Position numbers and translations under genes: made by a program
The notes under the pieces: model-generated
The model's input: only the letters and a program-made list of their open reading frames with translations
Databases searched by the model: none
Told to the model about the DNA's origin: nothing
Shown: piece by piece, positions 5,747-23,192 of the stretch
Layout of the letters: each line of letters opens with the position of its first letter
How positions within the stretch are numbered: the stretch's first letter is position 1
Assembly: GCA_964473795.1 (NCBI GenBank)
Contig: CAYYQT010000004.1
Span: 24,045-48,044, forward strand
Direction of reading: 5' to 3'
From: an uncultured Candidatus Saccharibacteria bacterium
GTDB taxonomy: Bacteria; Patescibacteriota; Minisyncoccia; Phycocordibacterales; Phycocordibacteraceae
DNA length: 24,000 nucleotides

Positions 5747-7651
5747 TTAAAGGTATATAGACGTACCGTAGTCTGTTTTTGAATAATCAACATGTCCAGG
5801 GTCTATATCCTCTATAAAAGATGACGGTTCTTGCCTGTAGTCTGTACCATAAATACGTCGAACATTTACAAGGGTTAGTATTAGTCGCAGTTTTGCGCGT
5901 GTTATTGCAACGTAGAAAAGACGTCTTTCTTCCTCTTCATCTCTTTCCTCGTTTCCCATTCCTTCATGTGGAAAGAGCCCTTCTTCCATTCCTGTTACAA
6001 ATACTGTGCCAAATTCCAAACCTTTAGCAGCATGTACTGTCATAAGTGTGACACCTACTGTATCGGTTTTTCTGTCTAGCTCATCTTGGTCGCTTGTAAG
6101 CGCTGCGTCAGCAAGAAAAGAGGATATTCCTTCTAGCCCAACGGATGTGTCATAACGTGTGGCAAGTGTCGCTAGTTCGTGTATGTTCCCAAGCCGTTCC
6201 CGCTCATCTTCTGTGCCGGTTGAAAGAGTTTTTTCGAGTCCGCTTTTTTCAATTACAAGACGTATAAAATCAGATGGTTTTGTTTTTTCTGATGCTAATG
6301 AAAGGTCTTCAACTATTGTTTCAAATTTTTCAACTTTTACTTTTTCTCCTGGACGTAATAAATCGCGTTGTCCAGCTACTAGTTTCCCTAGTGTTACTTT
6401 CCCTATTCCTCGCGACGGGGCTTGAACTGCTCGCATGCGGTCTGCTTCGCGTGTTGGTTCTAAAGCTAAACGTATCCACGCAAGAACGTCCTTAACCTCT
6501 TTTCTGTCAAAGAAACGAGTACCAAGAAGCTTGTATGGAACACCGGCGTGCAACAGTCCCTCTTCAAGTGCTCGCGACTGAAAGTTTGTGCGAAATAGTA
6601 TTGCGATGTTTTCTGGCGACACCCCTTTTGTAATTTCAGTTTTAATTTCTTTAGCAATCCATGATGCCTCTGCTTCAGCGTTTATTGCGGTATGTATTGT
6701 TATTTTATCTCCAACGGGATTGTTCGTTATAGACTTCTTTTCTTTTCTGTTTTTGTTATGTTCAATAATTGTATTTGCAGCTGCGACTATCGTTCCTGAT
6801 GACCTGTAATTTTGTTCAAGAATTATAGTTTTTGCTTTTGGGTAAGTTTTTTCAAACGAAAGAAGGTTGTCTATAGTAGCCCCTCTCCATGTATAGATAC
6901 ATTGGTCTATATCTCCAACAACAAACAGGTTCTTGTGTTTTCCAACAAGCGTATCTACGAGCCGTCCTTGCAACTCGTTTGTGTCTTGGTATTCGTCTAT
7001 ATGCACGTAGTGAAATCGTTCTTGAACTTTCGAACGTATGTCCGCGTGTTCATCAAGTAGTCTCATTGGAAGAGAAATAAGATCATCAAAATCGAGAGCT
7101 TTTTCTTTTTGAAGCGCTTCGTTATATCGCGTCCACACTTCACTTGATACGCGCGCCCTAAAACTGTCACGCCCATGTTTTTGTTTGAATTCTGAAGATG
7201 TCATTCCTAGGTTTTTTGCTTTCGAGATGCGCGAAAGTATAGCTCTTGGCGGAACCTCCTTGGGGTCTATATCCATAGCCTTTAGCGCAGCTTTTACAAC
7301 ACGTTCAGAATCATCTCGTCCAAAAATTGAAAAATATCTAGGAACTCCAATCGCACTACCATATTCTTCAAGTAGAATACGTCCAAGACCGTGGAATGTT
7401 GCTATTGTTGGCATTGGAGAGTCATCACCAAGTTGCGCTGTTAATCGTGTACGCATTTCGCGTGCTGCTTTATTTGTAAATGTGACAGCGAGTATGTTTT
7501 CTACAGGAACACCTTTTGTTATTAAATGGTAAATCCGTGTAGTTAGTACGCGTGTCTTTCCAGAACCAGCGCCAGCAAGAACAGACACTGCCCCATCGGT
7601 TGAGCACACAGCTTCTTTTTGTTGTTCGTTTAGTCCGTCAAGATAACTCAT
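5747..7651 (-). CDS. pcrA: ATP-dependent DNA helicase, UvrD/PcrA/Rep (SF1A) family
   Basis: 634-aa ORF with Walker A AGAGSGKT, motif II DEYQDTN, and the motifs TFHGLG, QNYRS and VHAAKGLEF in canonical order. Confidence 0.9.
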   Translation of the reverse strand: MSYLDGLNEQQKEAVCSTDGAVSVLAGAGSGKTRVLTTRIYHLITKGVPVENILAVTFTNKAAREMRTRLTAQLGDDSPMPTIATFHGLGRILLEEYGSAIGVPRYFSIFGRDDSERVVKAALKAMDIDPKEVPPRAILSRISKAKNLGMTSSEFKQKHGRDSFRARVSSEVWTRYNEALQKEKALDFDDLISLPMRLLDEHADIRSKVQERFHYVHIDEYQDTNELQGRLVDTLVGKHKNLFVVGDIDQCIYTWRGATIDNLLSFEKTYPKAKTIILEQNYRSSGTIVAAANTIIEHNKNRKEKKSITNNPVGDKITIHTAINAEAEASWIAKEIKTEITKGVSPENIAILFRTNFQSRALEEGLLHAGVPYKLLGTRFFDRKEVKDVLAWIRLALEPTREADRMRAVQAPSRGIGKVTLGKLVAGQRDLLRPGEKVKVEKFETIVEDLSLASEKTKPSDFIRLVIEKSGLEKTLSTGTEDERERLGNIHELATLATRYDTSVGLEGISSFLADAALTSDQDELDRKTDTVGVTLMTVHAAKGLEFGTVFVTGMEEGLFPHEGMGNEERDEEEERRLFYVAITRAKLRLILTLVNVRRIYGTDYRQEPSSFIEDIDPGHVDYSKTDYGTSIYL

Positions 7652-17552: not shown

Positions 17553-17645
17553 CAACACTTTTTTAAGTACCGTACTATATGAATGGTTTCAGTGTGTTTG
17601 GTTGTTGTAACCGCAGCTAAATAAAAGCTGTGATATGATTTTGTA

Positions 17646-18206
17646 ATGAAAATTGGAGTTATGGGTGCACACGGAAGCTTTTCTGAAAAAGCAGGGGAAG
17701 AATATATTTCTAAACATAAAGTTAAGTTTGGTAAAATTATTCCTCTCGTTAGTGCAGAATCAGTACTTAAGTCTGTCGAAGATGGTTCTGTTGATATAGG
17801 AATCTTTCCAATTGAAAACTCAAATGGTGGAATTGTGACTGAAGCGGTATACGCAATGGCTGGGCATAATTTTTCGATTAAAAGTATGTTTGAGATTGAT
17901 GTACATCATATGCTTTTGGTTAAGCCTGGTACTAAAGGTTCTTCAATACAAACGATATGCTCACATGACCAGGCGTTAAGGCAGTGTCGTATGTATCTTA
18001 AAAGGGTATGGGCAGGGGCTGATGTAACCCCGTACAGCGATACGGCAAAGGCTGCTGAAGGTTTAAGTAGTGGTATTTTGCCTGATACCACAGCGGTTAT
18101 TGCGCCTCGGAGATGTTCTGAGCTTTATGGGTTAGAAATACTAGAAGAGTCTATCCAAGATTTGAAGTTTAATTACACTACGTTTATTGTTGCTGTTAAG
18201 AAATAA
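17646..18206 (+). CDS. pheA: prephenate dehydratase catalytic (PDT) domain protein without ACT domain
   Basis: 186 aa. MKIGVMGAHGSFSEKA...IFPIENSNGGIV...SHDQALRQC...NYTTFIVA matches the PDT-domain motif order (the canonical N-x-TRF is NYTTF here). The ORF ends directly after the PDT domain. Confidence 0.7.
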   Translation: MKIGVMGAHGSFSEKAGEEYISKHKVKFGKIIPLVSAESVLKSVEDGSVDIGIFPIENSNGGIVTEAVYAMAGHNFSIKSMFEIDVHHMLLVKPGTKGSSIQTICSHDQALRQCRMYLKRVWAGADVTPYSDTAKAAEGLSSGILPDTTAVIAPRRCSELYGLEILEESIQDLKFNYTTFIVAVKK

Positions 18207-18237
18207 AACAAACAGTGAATAAATTTTTAAGACGAAA

Positions 18238-18257
18238 AACTCCATAAAAATGGAGTT
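18238..18257. terminator. short hairpin after pheA
   Basis: AACTCCAT-aaaa-ATGGAGTT. The T-run (TTTTTC) follows only on the minus strand and an A-run precedes it on the plus strand, so the strand assignment is ambiguous. Confidence 0.35.
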
Positions 18258-18455
18258 CGAAAATACTAACAATCAAATTAAACCTTTAATTCCACTCGAT
18301 TATTAACGTGAGTTTGTATATATAATCAATAAAAGGGAGGTCTTCATGCAGAAAGCAAAAATAGTGGAATTTAGTTCCACTTCTGTTGAGTGTTTATAGG
18401 TTTCTTTTAATATCTCTTTGAATATTCCAACAAAAGCTGAAATCCTCAAAAGATA

Positions 18456-18484
18456 GGACGAGCCAAGAGTTGGCTAGCTCGTCC
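18456..18484 (-). terminator. GC-rich hairpin immediately after the 169-aa ORF
   Basis: GGACGAGC..CCAA-gag-TTGG..GCTCGTCC. On the minus strand it starts 11 nt after the TAA (18498-18496) and is followed by TATCTTTTG. Confidence 0.55.
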
Positions 18485-18495
18485 AAAAACCTAGG

Positions 18496-19005
18496 TTACT
18501 CTTGTTGATGAATGGCACGAAGCTCCTCATCTGTCATGCTGGTGAGTTCCGTTGTCATGCTGGTGGTTTCCGTCGCACAGAAATCACCATTAAACGTCAG
18601 CAGAAAGTACAACCCCTGGAGCTCAATAATCTGTCTTTTTCCTTTGTAGTGGCCAGTCGTTAAGACCACCACTCCCTCTGAGCGGATTTTTTCTTTTTCC
18701 TCCAGGAGGAGTTTTTCTTGCATGTCATTAATTTTGGAGCTGAGGTTACCCTCCGTAAAAATCTCGTCGCAGTTAGCAGCTGTGCGACGGATCTTAATTG
18801 CCTCCCTCCTCCACAACTCCTTTTGCGGTGCCGTGCCGCGTCGCTTTTCAACCTCGGCGGCTTTTTTGTACACCCGCTTGCGGTCAGCGTAGCAGGTCTT
18901 TTTTCCAGTCTTAAAGGTCTGTTTGACCTTTTTAACGGCATGCCAGTATCTCTCTTGGGTTTCTTTAAGCAAGAAACCCCTGTCTTTAGAAAAAACCTCA
19001 TACAT
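18496..19005 (-). CDS. orphan hypothetical protein (169 aa), basic N-terminal half
   Basis: Strong SD AAGGAGG lies 5 nt before the ATG (minus strand, 19005). G+C is clearly above the surroundings: 27/60 in line 18601 and 33/60 in line 18841. The K/R-rich N-terminal ~100 aa are followed by a beta-like segment (VVVLTTGHYKGKRQIIELQGLYFLLTF). The C-terminal heptad is duplicated. No family recognised. Confidence 0.65.
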   Translation of the reverse strand: MYEVFSKDRGFLLKETQERYWHAVKKVKQTFKTGKKTCYADRKRVYKKAAEVEKRRGTAPQKELWRREAIKIRRTAANCDEIFTEGNLSSKINDMQEKLLLEEKEKIRSEGVVVLTTGHYKGKRQIIELQGLYFLLTFNGDFCATETTSMTTELTSMTDEELRAIHQQE

Positions 19006-19296
19006 AACAGCCTCCTTGTGTTGAACTGGTGGAATTGTTTCAAGAAACTTGCGAAATTATTGGCACGTACCATTCCTCTGAAAGACATAAACGAATTTCA
19101 ATAACCTTTTTGTTCTTTTAAAGGCTTATCATGTTTTTAACTGCTTGCCAAGGATTGTAGTTAAACGAAACTGTAAGCTCTTTTAATATATATACAAAAA
19201 TACGTTTGTATATATGTTGTATTGTTTCATCCAAAAGTATTGTAATAATGTACAGTAAATGAAAAATTCATTGAGTGTGCTATCATTCACCACAAA

Positions 19297-19367
19297 GCGG
19301 ATATGGTTTAGTGGTAAAATACGTCCTTGCCAAGGATGAGTCGGGAGTTCGATTCTCCCTATCCGCA
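19297..19367 (+). tRNA. tRNA-Gly (anticodon GCC), no encoded CCA
   Basis: Hand-folded. The acceptor is GCGGATA/TATCCGC and the D arm is GTTTAGTGGTAAAAT. The anticodon stem CGTCC/GGATG carries loop TTGCCAA. The T arm is GGGAG-TTCGATT-CTCCC and the discriminator is A. Confidence 0.9.
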
Positions 19368-19614
19368 CAGAGTAATACTTTGTTTCTATACGTCATTTAG
19401 CACAGTTTGCGTATGTTTAAGCTGTTAAACATTTTGTAGGTATGTTTTTTGTATAAATGATTCAGTCTTTCTAGGTTATTCGTTAAGAAAATTTATTTTT
19501 CAATAAATACGAAGAAGCTGTCATTATGAATTATAGTGTTTATTATAAGAGTCTTATTAAGAAATGCCTTTCTTAAAGAGTTTTGCATTAGTGGTTTTAC
19601 TCTTTCTTTAGCTC

Positions 19615-19643
19615 TTGACAGGCAGGTCTCTATATGCTATACT
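19615..19643 (+). promoter_or_regulatory. near-consensus sigma70 promoter driving the 339-aa ORF transcript
   Basis: TTGACA (19615-19620), a 17-nt spacer, then TATACT (19638-19643). It points toward the ORF starting at 19860, which implies a leader of about 210 nt. Confidence 0.65.
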
Positions 19644-19859
19644 ATCTTAATAGAAATTTAAGTTGTTCTTTGAAAATTTGATACTTAAGTTAAGGTGAGA
19701 TTTAGATATTCCATTTTGGTTTTGATTATTTGAAATTAAAATGGAGTATCTACTCCCGTCTGGTACTGACCTCCTGGACGTAAAACATTTCACTGAGCGC
19801 ATTTTTTGCGCTCGCGCTCTACCATCAAAGAAGGGTGCTTTGCGCCCAAGGAGACCCAA

Positions 19860-20879
19860 ATGTCATACAATTCACAGAATACACCTTTTGTCATCCGTCG
19901 CAACAACGCCGATGCTGCAGCCGCGGCAGACGGCTACAACCTCAATGACCTGGAGGGTTGCATGGAAGCCGCTTACGAGGGGCAGCAGTACGTCACTCGG
20001 AACGCCTTTCGGCGTTTCAGATGCCGGATTACCGGCGAAGAGTACCTGAAAATGGACGGAGCGACCATCGATTGGAAGCACCTGTCCGGCCTCGTTCGCG
20101 AGGCGGTTGAAGCCTCTGGCTTTGAAAATTTACCATGGAATCTGGACAACTTGGTTAATGCTAATGTTGCCCCAGGTTCGTATCCGTTTTTCGCCAGCGA
20201 AGCTGGCAAGGAACGGGTGGTCAAAAAAGTGCAACGTTTTTGTGGTTGGCTTCGTGCTGCCGCAAAATTGCCGGGTGTCCGGCGTGTTATCGAGAAGACA
20301 CAGTCTTCTTGCGGCATGTGGTCACCGCGCACCTTGGTACATCTGTGGGACCTTGCGTCCCATCACCCGTCACCGGGTGCACTGGAGCGGAAGCTCTGGA
20401 GTGTCCGGCGTCGAGCAGACGCAATCTTCTCTGCTTACAAAGGAGAACAAAAAGCGTCATGGGCGAGCATTGCCCAATCACTGCTGATAACTCAGCAGAC
20501 AGGAAAAGCGGCTGTCATGGCCGTAGCGGGAACGCTTTCGGGCGATACCTTCCGCATGTACCGCAACGCCAGAGACTGGCTGGTTGAGCTGCATCTGTGC
20601 AGTAAAGCCGACCAGAGCGATGGAGTCATCGCTCGTCGTGAGGCGACGCCGCGGTTTGTTAAATTGGGTATCGCGGTTTATCGCATCGCCCTGCAAGACC
20701 AGTACCACAACTGGTCGTTCCAGTGGTTGGTGCGGACGGCCGATGGTCGTACGTATCACTCCAACTGGGGTGGAGTGATAGAGACTCTCCACGACGCACT
20801 CCATGCGTGGAAGGAGCAGGACAAACTCGCTGCGATGGAAGCCGATTTTATGGGCTTCTTAAAGGGCGAGGAGGGTTAA
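19860..20879 (+). CDS. orphan hypothetical protein (339 aa) in GC-rich foreign block
   Basis: SD AAGGAG (19848-19853) lies 6 nt before ATG 19860 (MSYNSQNTPFVIRR...). The track's start at 19806 has no SD. It is soluble, with no TM and no catalytic motif I can name. G+C is 34/60 in line 20281, against 23/60 in host line 22141. Confidence 0.7.
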   Translation: MSYNSQNTPFVIRRNNADAAAAADGYNLNDLEGCMEAAYEGQQYVTRNAFRRFRCRITGEEYLKMDGATIDWKHLSGLVREAVEASGFENLPWNLDNLVNANVAPGSYPFFASEAGKERVVKKVQRFCGWLRAAAKLPGVRRVIEKTQSSCGMWSPRTLVHLWDLASHHPSPGALERKLWSVRRRADAIFSAYKGEQKASWASIAQSLLITQQTGKAAVMAVAGTLSGDTFRMYRNARDWLVELHLCSKADQSDGVIARREATPRFVKLGIAVYRIALQDQYHNWSFQWLVRTADGRTYHSNWGGVIETLHDALHAWKEQDKLAAMEADFMGFLKGEEG

Positions 20880-21153
20880 TGCCCTCTCGTTGTCCGACAG
20901 GATTCGTATTCGGCAGGTAATTGCTCTGCCGGTACAGAATCTTGGCTGCGGGAACGTGGTTGGGCAGGTAGGGATTTTATCCCCGCAATATGGCTCATAC
21001 CGAACCTCGAAAACGGCTATGTTCGAGGTGTGGCAATGAATCTTTATCGCCACCACCACGTTGAATGTCCTTAAGTATCAAATGTGGATGGTGAGTAATC
21101 TACACACCCTCCATAGCTAAAAGGTTTGAGGAGCACCTTAGTACAAGCTCCTC

Positions 21154-21204
21154 ACTCTCTCTGGATGTGCGTCTAGACTGATGAGTCCAAAAGGACGAAA
21201 GAGT
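21154..21204 (+). ncRNA. hammerhead ribozyme, type III topology
   Basis: ACTCTC|TCTGGA-tgtgcg-TCTAGA-CTGATGA-GTCC-aaaa-GGAC-GAA-AGAGT. Core nucleotides CUGAUGA, GAA, A15.1-U16.1 and H17=C are all present. Stem I is a 6-bp hairpin, stem II is 4 bp with an AAAA loop, and stem III is an open 5-bp helix. Predicted cleavage is after C21159. Confidence 0.8.
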
Positions 21205-21320
21205 TTTGGTAATATATAAGCTCGTAACAGTAAAATGTGATATACGGTATGCAGGCTTTAATACAAATAAATGTATTTTGGTTTAAACACTAAACGTCAT
21301 TTTTATAGCTCTCGTATTTC

Positions 21321-21348
21321 AAAATACCGTCATAACACGGTATTTTTT
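21321..21348 (+). terminator. rho-independent terminator downstream of the hammerhead
   Basis: ATACCG-tcataaca-CGGTAT followed by TTTTTTG, preceded by AAA. Confidence 0.65.
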
Positions 21349-21405
21349 GTTTTATGTATCAATTTAAGGTATTTTTTGTCCTGTAGTTTTGGATGTCTTT
21401 ATAAC

Positions 21406-21435
21406 TGTGGACAAACCTGTGTATAGTGTGGATAA
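21406..21435 (-). promoter_or_regulatory. pair of DnaA-box-like 9-mers
   Basis: TGTGGATAA (21427-21435) is the perfect reverse complement of TTATCCACA. TGTGGACAA (21406-21414) has one mismatch, the same orientation and 21-nt spacing. A weaker third copy, TGTGGATTT, lies at 21526-21534 over the yraN start. Confidence 0.35.
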
Positions 21436-21526
21436 AAGACAAAGGACATTTTGTGTGTGTTTAATAGAATTCTTAAAATGTGCATAAGTATAGCCGTATT
21501 TTTCTAAGTCACGGTATACTGTCTAT

Positions 21527-21925
21527 GTGGATTTATCTAAGTCATCAAAAAAAGAAATAGGAGCTTATGGAGAGGTTGTTGCTGCTAAATATCTAAAAAA
21601 GCACGGTTTTAAGGTTTTAGACAGAAACGTTACATTTAAAATTGGTGAGATTGATATAGTTGCAAAAAAAGACCTTGTGTTACATATTGTTGAAGTAAAA
21701 AGTATCGCTTGTAATGAGTTTCCTGACACGCGTTACGGTAGTAGTGGTTTGTATAGTCCAGAGGAAAACCTTAATTACTTAAAAATACAACAGGTTTCTA
21801 GAGTAGGTCAGTGGTATATTGCTAGTAAATCTTGGGAAGGTGAGTGGCAGATTGATGGAATAACAGCTTTGTTACGTCGGCATGATGGAATGGCAAGGAT
21901 TAGTTATTTTCCACATATTGTGTAA
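21527..21925 (+). CDS. yraN: YraN family (UPF0102) endonuclease-like protein
   Basis: 132 aa with a GTG start. GAYGEVVAAKYLKKHGFKVLDRN...GEIDIVAKK...VEVKS matches the YraN PD-(D/E)xK-like pattern. Confidence 0.8.
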   Translation: MDLSKSSKKEIGAYGEVVAAKYLKKHGFKVLDRNVTFKIGEIDIVAKKDLVLHIVEVKSIACNEFPDTRYGSSGLYSPEENLNYLKIQQVSRVGQWYIASKSWEGEWQIDGITALLRRHDGMARISYFPHIV

Positions 21926-21983
21926 ACTCTGGTAGGATATAGAAACTTGCCGTACAGTGTTTGAAGAAGATACGTTTTGTGGT

Positions 21984-22057
21984 CGGGGTGTAGTATACCG
22001 GTAGTACGCATCCTTTGGGAGGATGTTGACTGGGTTCGACTCCCAGCACCCCGACCA
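21984..22057 (+). tRNA. tRNA-Pro (anticodon TGG), CCA encoded
   Basis: Hand-folded. The acceptor is CGGGGTG/CACCCCG. The anticodon stem CATCC/GGATG carries loop TTTGGGA. The T arm is CTGGG-TTCGACT-CCCAG. The discriminator is A, followed by CCA (22055-22057). Confidence 0.9.
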
Positions 22058-22124
22058 CAGTACATATCCATTATGTATCTGGTATATATTATTACGGTAA
22101 GGATATATTTATTTCATATACATT

Positions 22125-23192
22125 ATGTTGATATACGACACAGTTAAAAATTTAGTAATACTTTACAGTGAGCCAGCTGCTTATGCTGTGGTAGTCACTG
22201 TCGTGTCCGTAGTGGTTTTTGCTTTTATACAAAACAGGGTAGTCGTTCGTCTGGATAAGTTATCCAAAAAGACAAAGAACAACGTAGATGACGCTATTGT
22301 CGCGATGGTTAAAAGTATTAAACCATCGTTTTATTGGTTTTTGTCCGTATACCTTGGGTTTCAGACATTACCAATGTCTTTGTCTTTTTCGGTAATGCTT
22401 AACGGGGTGCTGTTGGCCGTTGTCCTTTGGTATGTGCTTCGTGCAGCTAGTATTGCAATAGACATGTGGCTTGCAGGTACAACGAAAGATGCTGGTGAAA
22501 AATCCGCCAGGCACTTCCTTGGAATAATTACCAAGTCCAGTTTGTGGATTGTTGCGATACTCCTACTGCTTTCTAATCTTGGGATAAACGTAACGTCTTT
22601 GGTTGCTGGCCTTGGAATAGGAGGTGTTGCCATCGCGTTTGCTTTACAAAATATACTTACAGATTTGTTTAGTTCATTTGCTATTTATTTTGACAAACCT
22701 TTTGTTGTTGGTGATTACATTGTAATTGGCGACCAGACTGGAATAGTTGAAAAGATTGGAATTAAAACTACAAGGTTGCGTGCTCTTCAGGGTGAGGAGA
22801 TTGTTATTTCTAACAAGGAGCTTACATCGACTCGTATCCAAAACTTTCATTCGATGCAGTCTAGAAGAATACAAATGACTTTTGGTATTTTATACGAAAC
22901 GCCTATTGAGACGGTTTCTGCACTTCCTAAAAAAATAAAAGACATGGTGGCTGGTATAAGTGGTATTAAAATAGATAGAGTTCATTTTTACGGATTTGGA
23001 AACTCGTCACTTGATTTTGCACTTGTTTATTACGTCGAGTCTGGTGAGTATTCTGAATACATGGATAAGCAGCAAGAAATAAACCTTTCTATTTTGAAAT
23101 TGTTTAGAAAAGAGAACGTTGAGTTTGCATACCCAACTCAAACTGTGTATATGTCTTCGACTGCTACTGACTCGAAGAAAGGGCTTGAGTAA
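22125..23192 (+). CDS. mechanosensitive ion channel, MscS family
   Basis: 355 aa with several N-terminal TMs. The pore helix and beta domain read GLGIGGVAIAFALQNILTDLFSSFAIYFDKPFVVGDYIVIGDQTGIVEKIGIKTTRLR, which is typical of MscS. Confidence 0.85.
   Translation: MLIYDTVKNLVILYSEPAAYAVVVTVVSVVVFAFIQNRVVVRLDKLSKKTKNNVDDAIVAMVKSIKPSFYWFLSVYLGFQTLPMSLSFSVMLNGVLLAVVLWYVLRAASIAIDMWLAGTTKDAGEKSARHFLGIITKSSLWIVAILLLLSNLGINVTSLVAGLGIGGVAIAFALQNILTDLFSSFAIYFDKPFVVGDYIVIGDQTGIVEKIGIKTTRLRALQGEEIVISNKELTSTRIQNFHSMQSRRIQMTFGILYETPIETVSALPKKIKDMVAGISGIKIDRVHFYGFGNSSLDFALVYYVESGEYSEYMDKQQEINLSILKLFRKENVEFAYPTQTVYMSSTATDSKKGLE

Follow-up and report, generated by a model that had tools for sequence, protein, structure and literature searches.

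The 24,000-nt stretch of DNA that was analysed here, referred to below as the window, raises the question of what a self-cleaving RNA would do for a cellular gene: it places a hammerhead ribozyme of a phage-associated class in a Patescibacteria-like genome, between an accessory gene and the terminator of that gene's transcript. The nearest named relatives of the window are Patescibacteria MAGs, and its genes are housekeeping ones: those for a CCA-adding enzyme, ExoIII, a XerC-type recombinase, prephenate dehydratase (PDT), YraN, and MscS, along with three tRNA genes. No recognisable phage gene, and no phage or prophage context, was found in its 24 kb. The role of the thousands of DNA-encoded hammerheads in bacteria and phages is an open question (PMC6765202, PMC6155905), and our literature search found no paper connecting hammerheads with Patescibacteria.

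The motif occupies positions 21154–21204 of the + strand. Read from its 5′ end, it consists of the first strand of stem III (ACUCU), the cleavage-site nucleotide (C), the two strands of stem I (UCUGGA and UCUAGA) on either side of loop 1 (UGUGCG), the core segment CUGAUGA, the strands of stem II (GUCC and GGAC) flanking loop 2 (AAAA), the core segment GAA, and the second strand of stem III (AGAGU). All invariant core positions are present, with C3 U4 G5 A6 N7 G8 A9 represented by CUGAUGA at 21178–21184 and G12 A13 A14 by GAA at 21197–21199. A15.1 (A21200) pairs with U16.1 (U21158), position 17 is a non-G residue (C21159), and the pairs adjacent to the core are canonical, both at U1.1–A2.1 (U21160–A21177) and at G10.1–C11.1 (G21185–C21196). 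The resulting CUC triplet would be cleavable under the NUH rule. Stem I is a closed hairpin of 6 bp with one G–U pair, stem II is a closed hairpin of 4 bp, and stem III is an open helix of 5 bp including A15.1–U16.1, an arrangement that gives type III topology. The MFE fold of 21126–21206 (ViennaRNA) consists exactly of an upstream 7-bp hairpin and the three-way junction. In a 140-nt context (MFE fold of 21076–21215), stems I and II stay and the weak 5-bp stem III is lost to longer-range pairing.

RF00008 (Hammerhead_3) was the best family of Rfam clan CL00010 for this sequence, scoring 37.2 bits end to end over model positions 1–54, with an E-value of 1e-6 when 301 nt were searched and of 1e-5 when 2.9 kb were. 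The gathering score of RF00008 is 48.5 bits, and with gathering thresholds applied, Rfam reported three tRNAs only and no hammerhead in the window; the ribozyme is missing from such a default scan because 37.2 bits lies below that score. We also searched with R1, a covariance model for which 82 type III hammerheads from viral contigs in IMG/VR served as the training set, with the window excluded. R1 matched 21154–21204 at 66 bits (E 6.5e-17), without a gap over 51 of 51 positions, and its second-best match in the window scored 9 bits. Because the class-specific model gives 66 bits, we attribute the sub-gathering RF00008 score to the seed make-up of that family. The initial annotation had proposed a check against the Rfam hammerhead models, and the outcome was divided: the match is significant (E 1e-6 locally) with type III as the best family, but its score falls short of the 48.5-bit gathering score.

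That shortfall is the one result that would suit a chance resemblance to the hammerhead consensus, a reading whose probability we regard as negligible in view of the E-values from Rfam (1e-6, local) and R1 (6.5e-17). A first-order Markov simulation of 19.2 Mb at the composition of the window produced 637 core matches, a single loose type III fold, and no fold with stems I, II, and III of at least 6, 4, and 5 bp, respectively. Features that the consensus does not constrain fit the viral class described below as well, namely the sequences of loops 1 and 2, the exact helix lengths, and a hairpin abutting stem III. The E-values and the simulation together refute a chance origin. The sequence, the core, the three helices, the covariance models, and the MFE fold agree on a complete type III hammerhead at 21154–21204, as the initial annotation had read it, and its prediction of cleavage after C21159 (between C21159 and U21160) is the one also made by the motif reading, the Rfam and R1 alignments, and the fold.

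Work on bacterial hammerheads reportedly includes studies by de la Pena and Garcia-Robles in 2010 and by Perreault et al. and Jimenez et al. in 2011. Because loop 1 and stem II of the window ribozyme resemble those of the hammerhead of the satellite RNA of tobacco ringspot virus (sTRSV), the source of RiboJ, IMG/VR viral contigs were scanned with three patterns, whose stipulation of loop 1 AUGUGC or loop 2 NAAA biased the sample. These scans and a structural filter yielded at least 124 type III candidates, at least 105 of them distinct, with the architecture of the window ribozyme; among the matches listed, a type III fold was obtained for 105 of the 143 sites that fit the stem II/loop 2 pattern. 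The shared architecture comprises a stem III of 4–6 bp, C or A at position 17, a stem I of 6 bp with a 6-nt loop, a stem II of 4 bp with a 4-nt loop, and GAA. Loop 1 follows the consensus UG(U/A)GYR, in which the first two positions, U and G, are invariant or at least 90% conserved; among the matches listed it is mostly UGUGUG, UGUGUA, or UGAGUG, with UGUGCR in nine cases. Loop 2 is NAAA, in the form of AAAA or GAAA. Fast cleavage at physiological Mg in type III hammerheads depends on a tertiary contact between loops 1 and 2, and the two loops of the window ribozyme, UGUGCG and AAAA, agree with the conserved ones of the viral class. The 82 aligned members share 53 columns with no gap at all, and 14 of 16 pairs vary on both sides, the 100% pairing in this alignment being by construction, as the filter demanded pairing. 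Among the 121 viral members listed, the cleavage triplet is GUC in 96 and GUA in 19, the rest having AUC, UUC, or GUU and none CUC.

The surroundings of these ribozymes are equally stereotyped. In 81 of the 122 cases scored (the 121 viral ribozymes listed and the window's own), a stable hairpin runs right up to stem III with zero gap, and the median upstream folding energy over the same 122 is −13 kcal/mol, compared with −4.2 for shuffles. We found no statement of this abutting-hairpin rule in the papers that we consulted on bacterial and phage hammerheads. Among the 121 viral ribozymes listed, 98 lie downstream of a same-strand ORF (median 34 nt) and 58 lie upstream of a next ORF (median 24 nt); among the matches listed, 19 viral loci have two or three ribozymes. 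Inspection of individual IMG/VR loci (L026–L254; for example L027 at 1115, 1868, and 3678, L151, and L252) gave the same picture of a uniform type III class, of which a contig can have several members, placed between successive genes, and most class members among the matches listed have a stable hairpin directly 5′, very often the same GUGUCUUCAAAGACAC hairpin. By its R1 score of 66 bits (E 6.5e-17) and its gapless alignment over 51 positions, the window ribozyme counts as a bona fide member of this class, which is abundant in phage DNA. The initial annotation had regarded type III topology as unusual in bacteria and phages, a view that is not sustained by the at least 105 distinct viral examples found here or by the bacterial type III hammerheads already published (PMC6155905). 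In intergenic regions of bacteria, canonical hammerheads of types I and III are on record, those of type III since 2010 (PMC6155905). Hammerheads flank genes in prophages (PMC3088659), where they have been proposed to cut long transcripts into gene-length mRNAs and where cleavage in vitro has been demonstrated for three tandem sets (PMC3088659, PMC6765202).

In the window, the ribozyme belongs to an accessory cassette of ~2.0 kb on the + strand (19369..21397), directly 3′ of a tRNA-Gly(GCC) gene. At three loci syntenic with this region (L258, L259, and L260), tRNA-Arg and tRNA-Gly(GCC) genes are followed by only ~175 nt and then by the YraN gene. Because the homology of these loci to the window breaks off at 19369 and restarts at ~21398, the promoter, leader, gene, ribozyme, and terminator form, on the evidence of synteny, an inserted unit of 2 kb that adjoins the tRNA-Gly gene at its 3′ end. 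No tRNA-derived att repeat of an integrative element was found at the cassette. Two independent Logan assemblies of the window strain (L001 and L002) both break at 19340, inside tRNA-Gly(GCC), probably as a result of the tRNA repeat; strain variation at a tRNA-adjacent insertion site would also fit these breaks. The prephenate dehydratase gene and an ORF of 169 aa on the − strand (18496–19005) are likewise inserted relative to L258–L260, between tRNA-Arg and tRNA-Gly at 17600–19250; the G+C content of the 169-aa ORF is 47%, rising locally to near 61%, and searches of Pfam and PHROG gave no match to it. On the other side of the cassette, upstream of the YraN gene, the block at 21398–21445 is 79–84% identical to L258–L260 and the remaining spacer is unalignable. 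This block contains two DnaA-box-like 9-mers, TGTGGACAA and TGTGGATAA, both of which are perfect in L258.

The cassette has the layout of a single transcription unit. A sigma-70-type promoter on the + strand at 19615..19643 (TTGACA and TATACT separated by 17 nt, with a TG extension) matches 11 of 12 consensus positions and is the best in 19000–22200; no further promoter-like or terminator site was found on the + strand from this promoter to the ribozyme. It is followed on the same strand by a conserved 5′ leader at 19655..19859 that is predicted, tentatively and from two sequences only, to form a long hairpin and to pair a CUCC segment with the ribosome-binding site GGAG. The leader (~200 nt) is ~80% identical to positions 5792–6000 of L003, a locus with a homologous gene, whereas the proteins are only 64–70% identical, and the predicted leader hairpin differs between the window and L003 by two compensatory changes, again from two sequences only. 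No Rfam family matches the leader, which may be a cis-regulatory RNA of a kind not yet described. A G+C hairpin directly before the ribosome-binding site was also seen in three other homologous loci (L020, L022, and L023).

Two + strand hairpins, neither followed by a U tract, separate the gene from the ribozyme. The first is at 21083..21115 in the MFE fold of 21076–21215, and the second, at 21128..21153, is a 7-bp G+C-rich hairpin (GAGGAGC/GCUCCUC) that abuts the 5′ end of stem III. Past the ribozyme on the same strand are an A+U-rich spacer at 21205..21320, which by its sequence and the ORF list holds no credible ORF, and an intrinsic terminator at 21321..21352 with a 10-bp stem and a 6-nt loop (hairpin 21321–21346), followed by UUUUUUGUUUU. 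A 7-bp long-range pairing (UAUCAAA/UUUGGUA; 21076–21082 with 21206–21212) is predicted around this 3′-UTR module of two hairpins and ribozyme, and may reflect chance or the limits of an inserted module. Much of the geometry described by the initial annotation was recovered: the 7-bp hairpin and the intrinsic terminator are both present, the ribozyme has the orientation of the upstream gene and stands between that gene and the terminator, and the terminator starts at 21321, 116 nt downstream of the ribozyme, where ~115 nt had been given. The ribozyme was also correctly placed at the right-hand edge of a G+C-rich block, which extends from ~19745 to ~21205 with 50–62% G+C in a chromosome of 37–38% and ends at the ribozyme.

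The upstream gene itself required reinterpretation. The 339-aa ORF (19860–20879) ends at an in-frame TAA (20877–20879) inside a longer conserved G+C-rich gene on the + strand (19860..21074), which closes with TAA at 21072–21074 and would encode 404 aa if intact. Scans of genome-contig and metagenome-contig collections with the protein of this accessory gene found 22 homologues besides the ORF itself. The homologues run ~65–75 aa beyond the TAA with a conserved C-terminal domain (CPL..R.DSY.AGNC..GT.SW..GW); in the window, this domain is encoded in frame directly past the stop, and tblastn aligns through it as a single segment. In a sister strain (L257; Logan SRR6439371) that differs from the window at 6 positions in 790 nt (99% identity), the codon at 20877–20879 is TAT (Tyr), and the homologues have Y or F. 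TAA is an ordinary stop in this genome, closing 15 of the 19 ORFs of the window. Genome-wide recoding or read-through of TAA is ruled out by those 15 ORFs and the TAT of the sister strain. Because the sister strain has TAT at this codon, TAA is an ordinary stop, and the homologues extend past it, comparison of these sequences identifies a recent, strain-specific nonsense allele in the window strain that removes the conserved C-terminal domain of ~65 aa. Two statements in the initial annotation need amending for these reasons: the gene, called an orphan, has 22 homologues, and the ribozyme, placed 275 nt after the stop, was measured from the strain-specific TAA and starts 80 nt past the true gene end at 21074.

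The accessory protein has no Pfam or PHROG match, its family has no relative in IMG/VR, and Foldseek searches of PDB and BFVD with an AlphaFold model (pLDDT 77) gave no match. The G+C content of the gene exceeds that of its flanks in all 15 loci checked, by 1–20 points overall and by 8–20 points in 14 of them. Family members of ~400 aa (L003–L023) often occupy very short contigs, many of them 1.2–3 kb, and lie at differing chromosomal positions; in the window and in L003 alike, the neighbour is a tRNA-Gly gene. As far as composition and distribution go, the family's behaviour suggests a mobile accessory gene. Searches of at least 20 homologous loci by regular expression, by Rfam at E up to 1, and with model R1 found no hammerhead or other Rfam ribozyme, and in three of these loci (L003, L020, and L023) an ordinary intrinsic terminator lies a few bases past the stop. 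The ribozyme is ruled out as a trait of the gene family by its absence from these homologous loci.

We think it likely, if by no great measure, that the window contains a phage-class hammerhead in the 3′ UTR of an accessory gene, that its self-cleavage leaves an mRNA ending in a protective hairpin, and that the module was acquired from mobile or phage DNA. According to this proposal, transcription would begin at the strong 19615 promoter, pass through the gene, the two non-terminating hairpins, and the ribozyme, and stop at the 21321 terminator. The ribozyme would then fold and cleave after C21159, leaving an mRNA whose 3′ end consists of the hairpin at 21128–21153 and ACUCUC with a 2′,3′-cyclic phosphate, and the A+U-rich tail and terminator would be shed as a 5′-OH fragment of ~190 nt (21160 to ~21352). 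The terminal hairpin would be expected to shield the mRNA against 3′ exonucleases as a terminator hairpin does. By analogy, the hairpin followed by a hammerhead is the same 3′-end-forming, cistron-separating arrangement as that between the genes of phage contigs, where it would let transcription continue and give each cistron its own protected end. An origin of the module in mobile or phage DNA is most likely, because it was found in none of the other family members. Against the proposal as a whole count the sub-gathering Rfam score, the CUC triplet, which none of the 121 viral members listed has, the loss of stem III from the longer MFE fold, the lack of a recognisable phage gene in the window, and the lack of relatives of the gene family in IMG/VR and PHROGs. 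In departure from the typical phage arrangement, no gene follows the ribozyme; cistron separation is therefore impossible as its role here, and the module is either a pure 3′-end former or a recent passenger.

The second of these possibilities, that the hairpin and hammerhead came with phage or other mobile DNA, may still cleave, have no selected function, and have not yet decayed, strikes us as unlikely, if far from negligible. It would account for the presence of the ribozyme in only one lineage of the gene family, for its place in an inserted cassette, and for the lack of a downstream gene where the phage arrangement usually has one; the nonsense mutation in the window strain's gene also speaks for it, and the available copies are too alike to reveal purifying selection. 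The 51-nt ribozyme is identical in L001, L002, and the sister strain, but this conservation carries no weight because the only other copies come from identical or nearly identical strains: between the sister strain and the window there are no changes in these 51 nt and 4 in the 322 nt of downstream intergenic DNA, a difference that is not significant. Decay, however, is not seen in the module, which retains all core positions, 15 of 15 pairs, the two loops typical of the class, and the hairpin next to stem III, and the gene is intact in the sister strain, so the unit was functional until very recently. We consider it very unlikely that the ribozyme instead serves the RNA downstream, with cleavage making the 5′-OH end of a small RNA of ~190 nt (21160–~21352) composed of the ribozyme body, the A+U-rich stretch, and the terminator hairpin. 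Such a fragment would be discrete, bounded by the cleavage site and the terminator, and in phages a hammerhead usually marks the 5′ end of the functional unit that follows, but the stretch has no credible ORF or Rfam match, and 21205–21320 resembles none of the loci compared and no GenBank phage, the ribozyme itself aside; a BLAST search of the 3′ region against GenBank phages returned only a spurious 35-nt match. Of the 6 substitutions that set the sister strain apart, moreover, the spacer has 2 and the intergenic stretch past it another 2, although these numbers are too small to test.

Type III topology had been taken by the initial annotation as a pointer to viroid-like RNAs, retrozymes, and Obelisk-type elements, and the G+C-rich block could in principle be the DNA copy of a hammerhead-processed circular RNA replicon. 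The sTRSV-like stem II (GUCC/GGAC) and UGUGC start of loop 1 would suit such an element, as would a block of ~1.4 kb with foreign composition and one ORF and the many homologues on contigs of 1.2–3 kb. We nevertheless hold this to be scarcely credible. Only a single ribozyme was found, counting both strands, with no flanking direct repeats and no sign of circularity; the short contigs L020–L023 lack terminal redundancy and have ordinary leaders and terminators; homologues lie in chromosomal synteny; and the fit to the DNA-phage class exceeds that to the Rfam type III family (66 compared to 37 bits). For practical purposes, the single ribozyme, the lack of terminal repeats on the short contigs, and the chromosomal synteny rule out a circular RNA or Obelisk-like replicon.

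The 3′-end-forming reading remains the one we prefer, and it has a more ambitious form. The parts of the 2-kb unit are a strong promoter, a conserved leader whose predicted structure may mask the ribosome-binding site, a G+C-rich gene for a protein without a recognised fold, and the hairpin with its hammerhead. It is conceivable, though on balance improbable, that this unit is an undescribed kind of small island that inserts next to tRNA-Gly genes, in Patescibacteria as well as in other bacteria, and that a phage hairpin-hammerhead was captured in the window lineage as a terminator-independent former of mRNA 3′ ends. If so, the ribozyme would be a domesticated one with a definable cellular role; otherwise the locus is one more member of a large known hammerhead family. 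The locus has a single promoter, gene, ribozyme, and terminator, with the ribozyme where relatives have an ordinary terminator, and because of this simple layout it could be a clean test bed for the proposed protection of mRNA 3′ ends by a hairpin and hammerhead that do not stop transcription.

Comparison with known hammerheads places the window ribozyme closest to the phage and prophage type III class. It departs from the RF00008 family, which has a longer loop 2 (a 4-nt deletion in the window) and two outer stem III pairs that are unformed in the window. With the sTRSV (+) hammerhead (L024), it shares type III topology, an identical stem II (GUCC/GGAC), and a stem I of 6 bp that closes with GGA ahead of a loop starting UGUGC. 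The sTRSV hammerhead differs in having a 7-nt loop 1 (UGUGCUU), loop 2 GUGA, and a GUC triplet, and it processes multimers of a 359-nt circular RNA, whereas the window has one DNA-encoded copy in an mRNA 3′ UTR. Relative to the phage and prophage class, the differences concern setting and triplet: the host locus is part of a cellular chromosome, and the 24 kb of the window contain no recognisable phage gene; the ribozyme follows a gene family with no other ribozyme or phage link; its triplet is CUC, where class members mostly have GUC or GUA; and only a terminator lies downstream, at +116 nt, whereas 58 of the 121 viral ribozymes listed have an ORF there, at ~20–25 nt. The structure and the immediate upstream surroundings are those of the class, with the same 6-bp stem I, a 6-nt loop 1 starting with U and G, a 4-bp stem II with an AAAA loop, a hairpin abutting stem III (in the window at 21128–21153, −10.5 kcal/mol, zero gap), and the same intergenic, co-oriented place after an ORF, in this case 80 nt past the stop at 21074.
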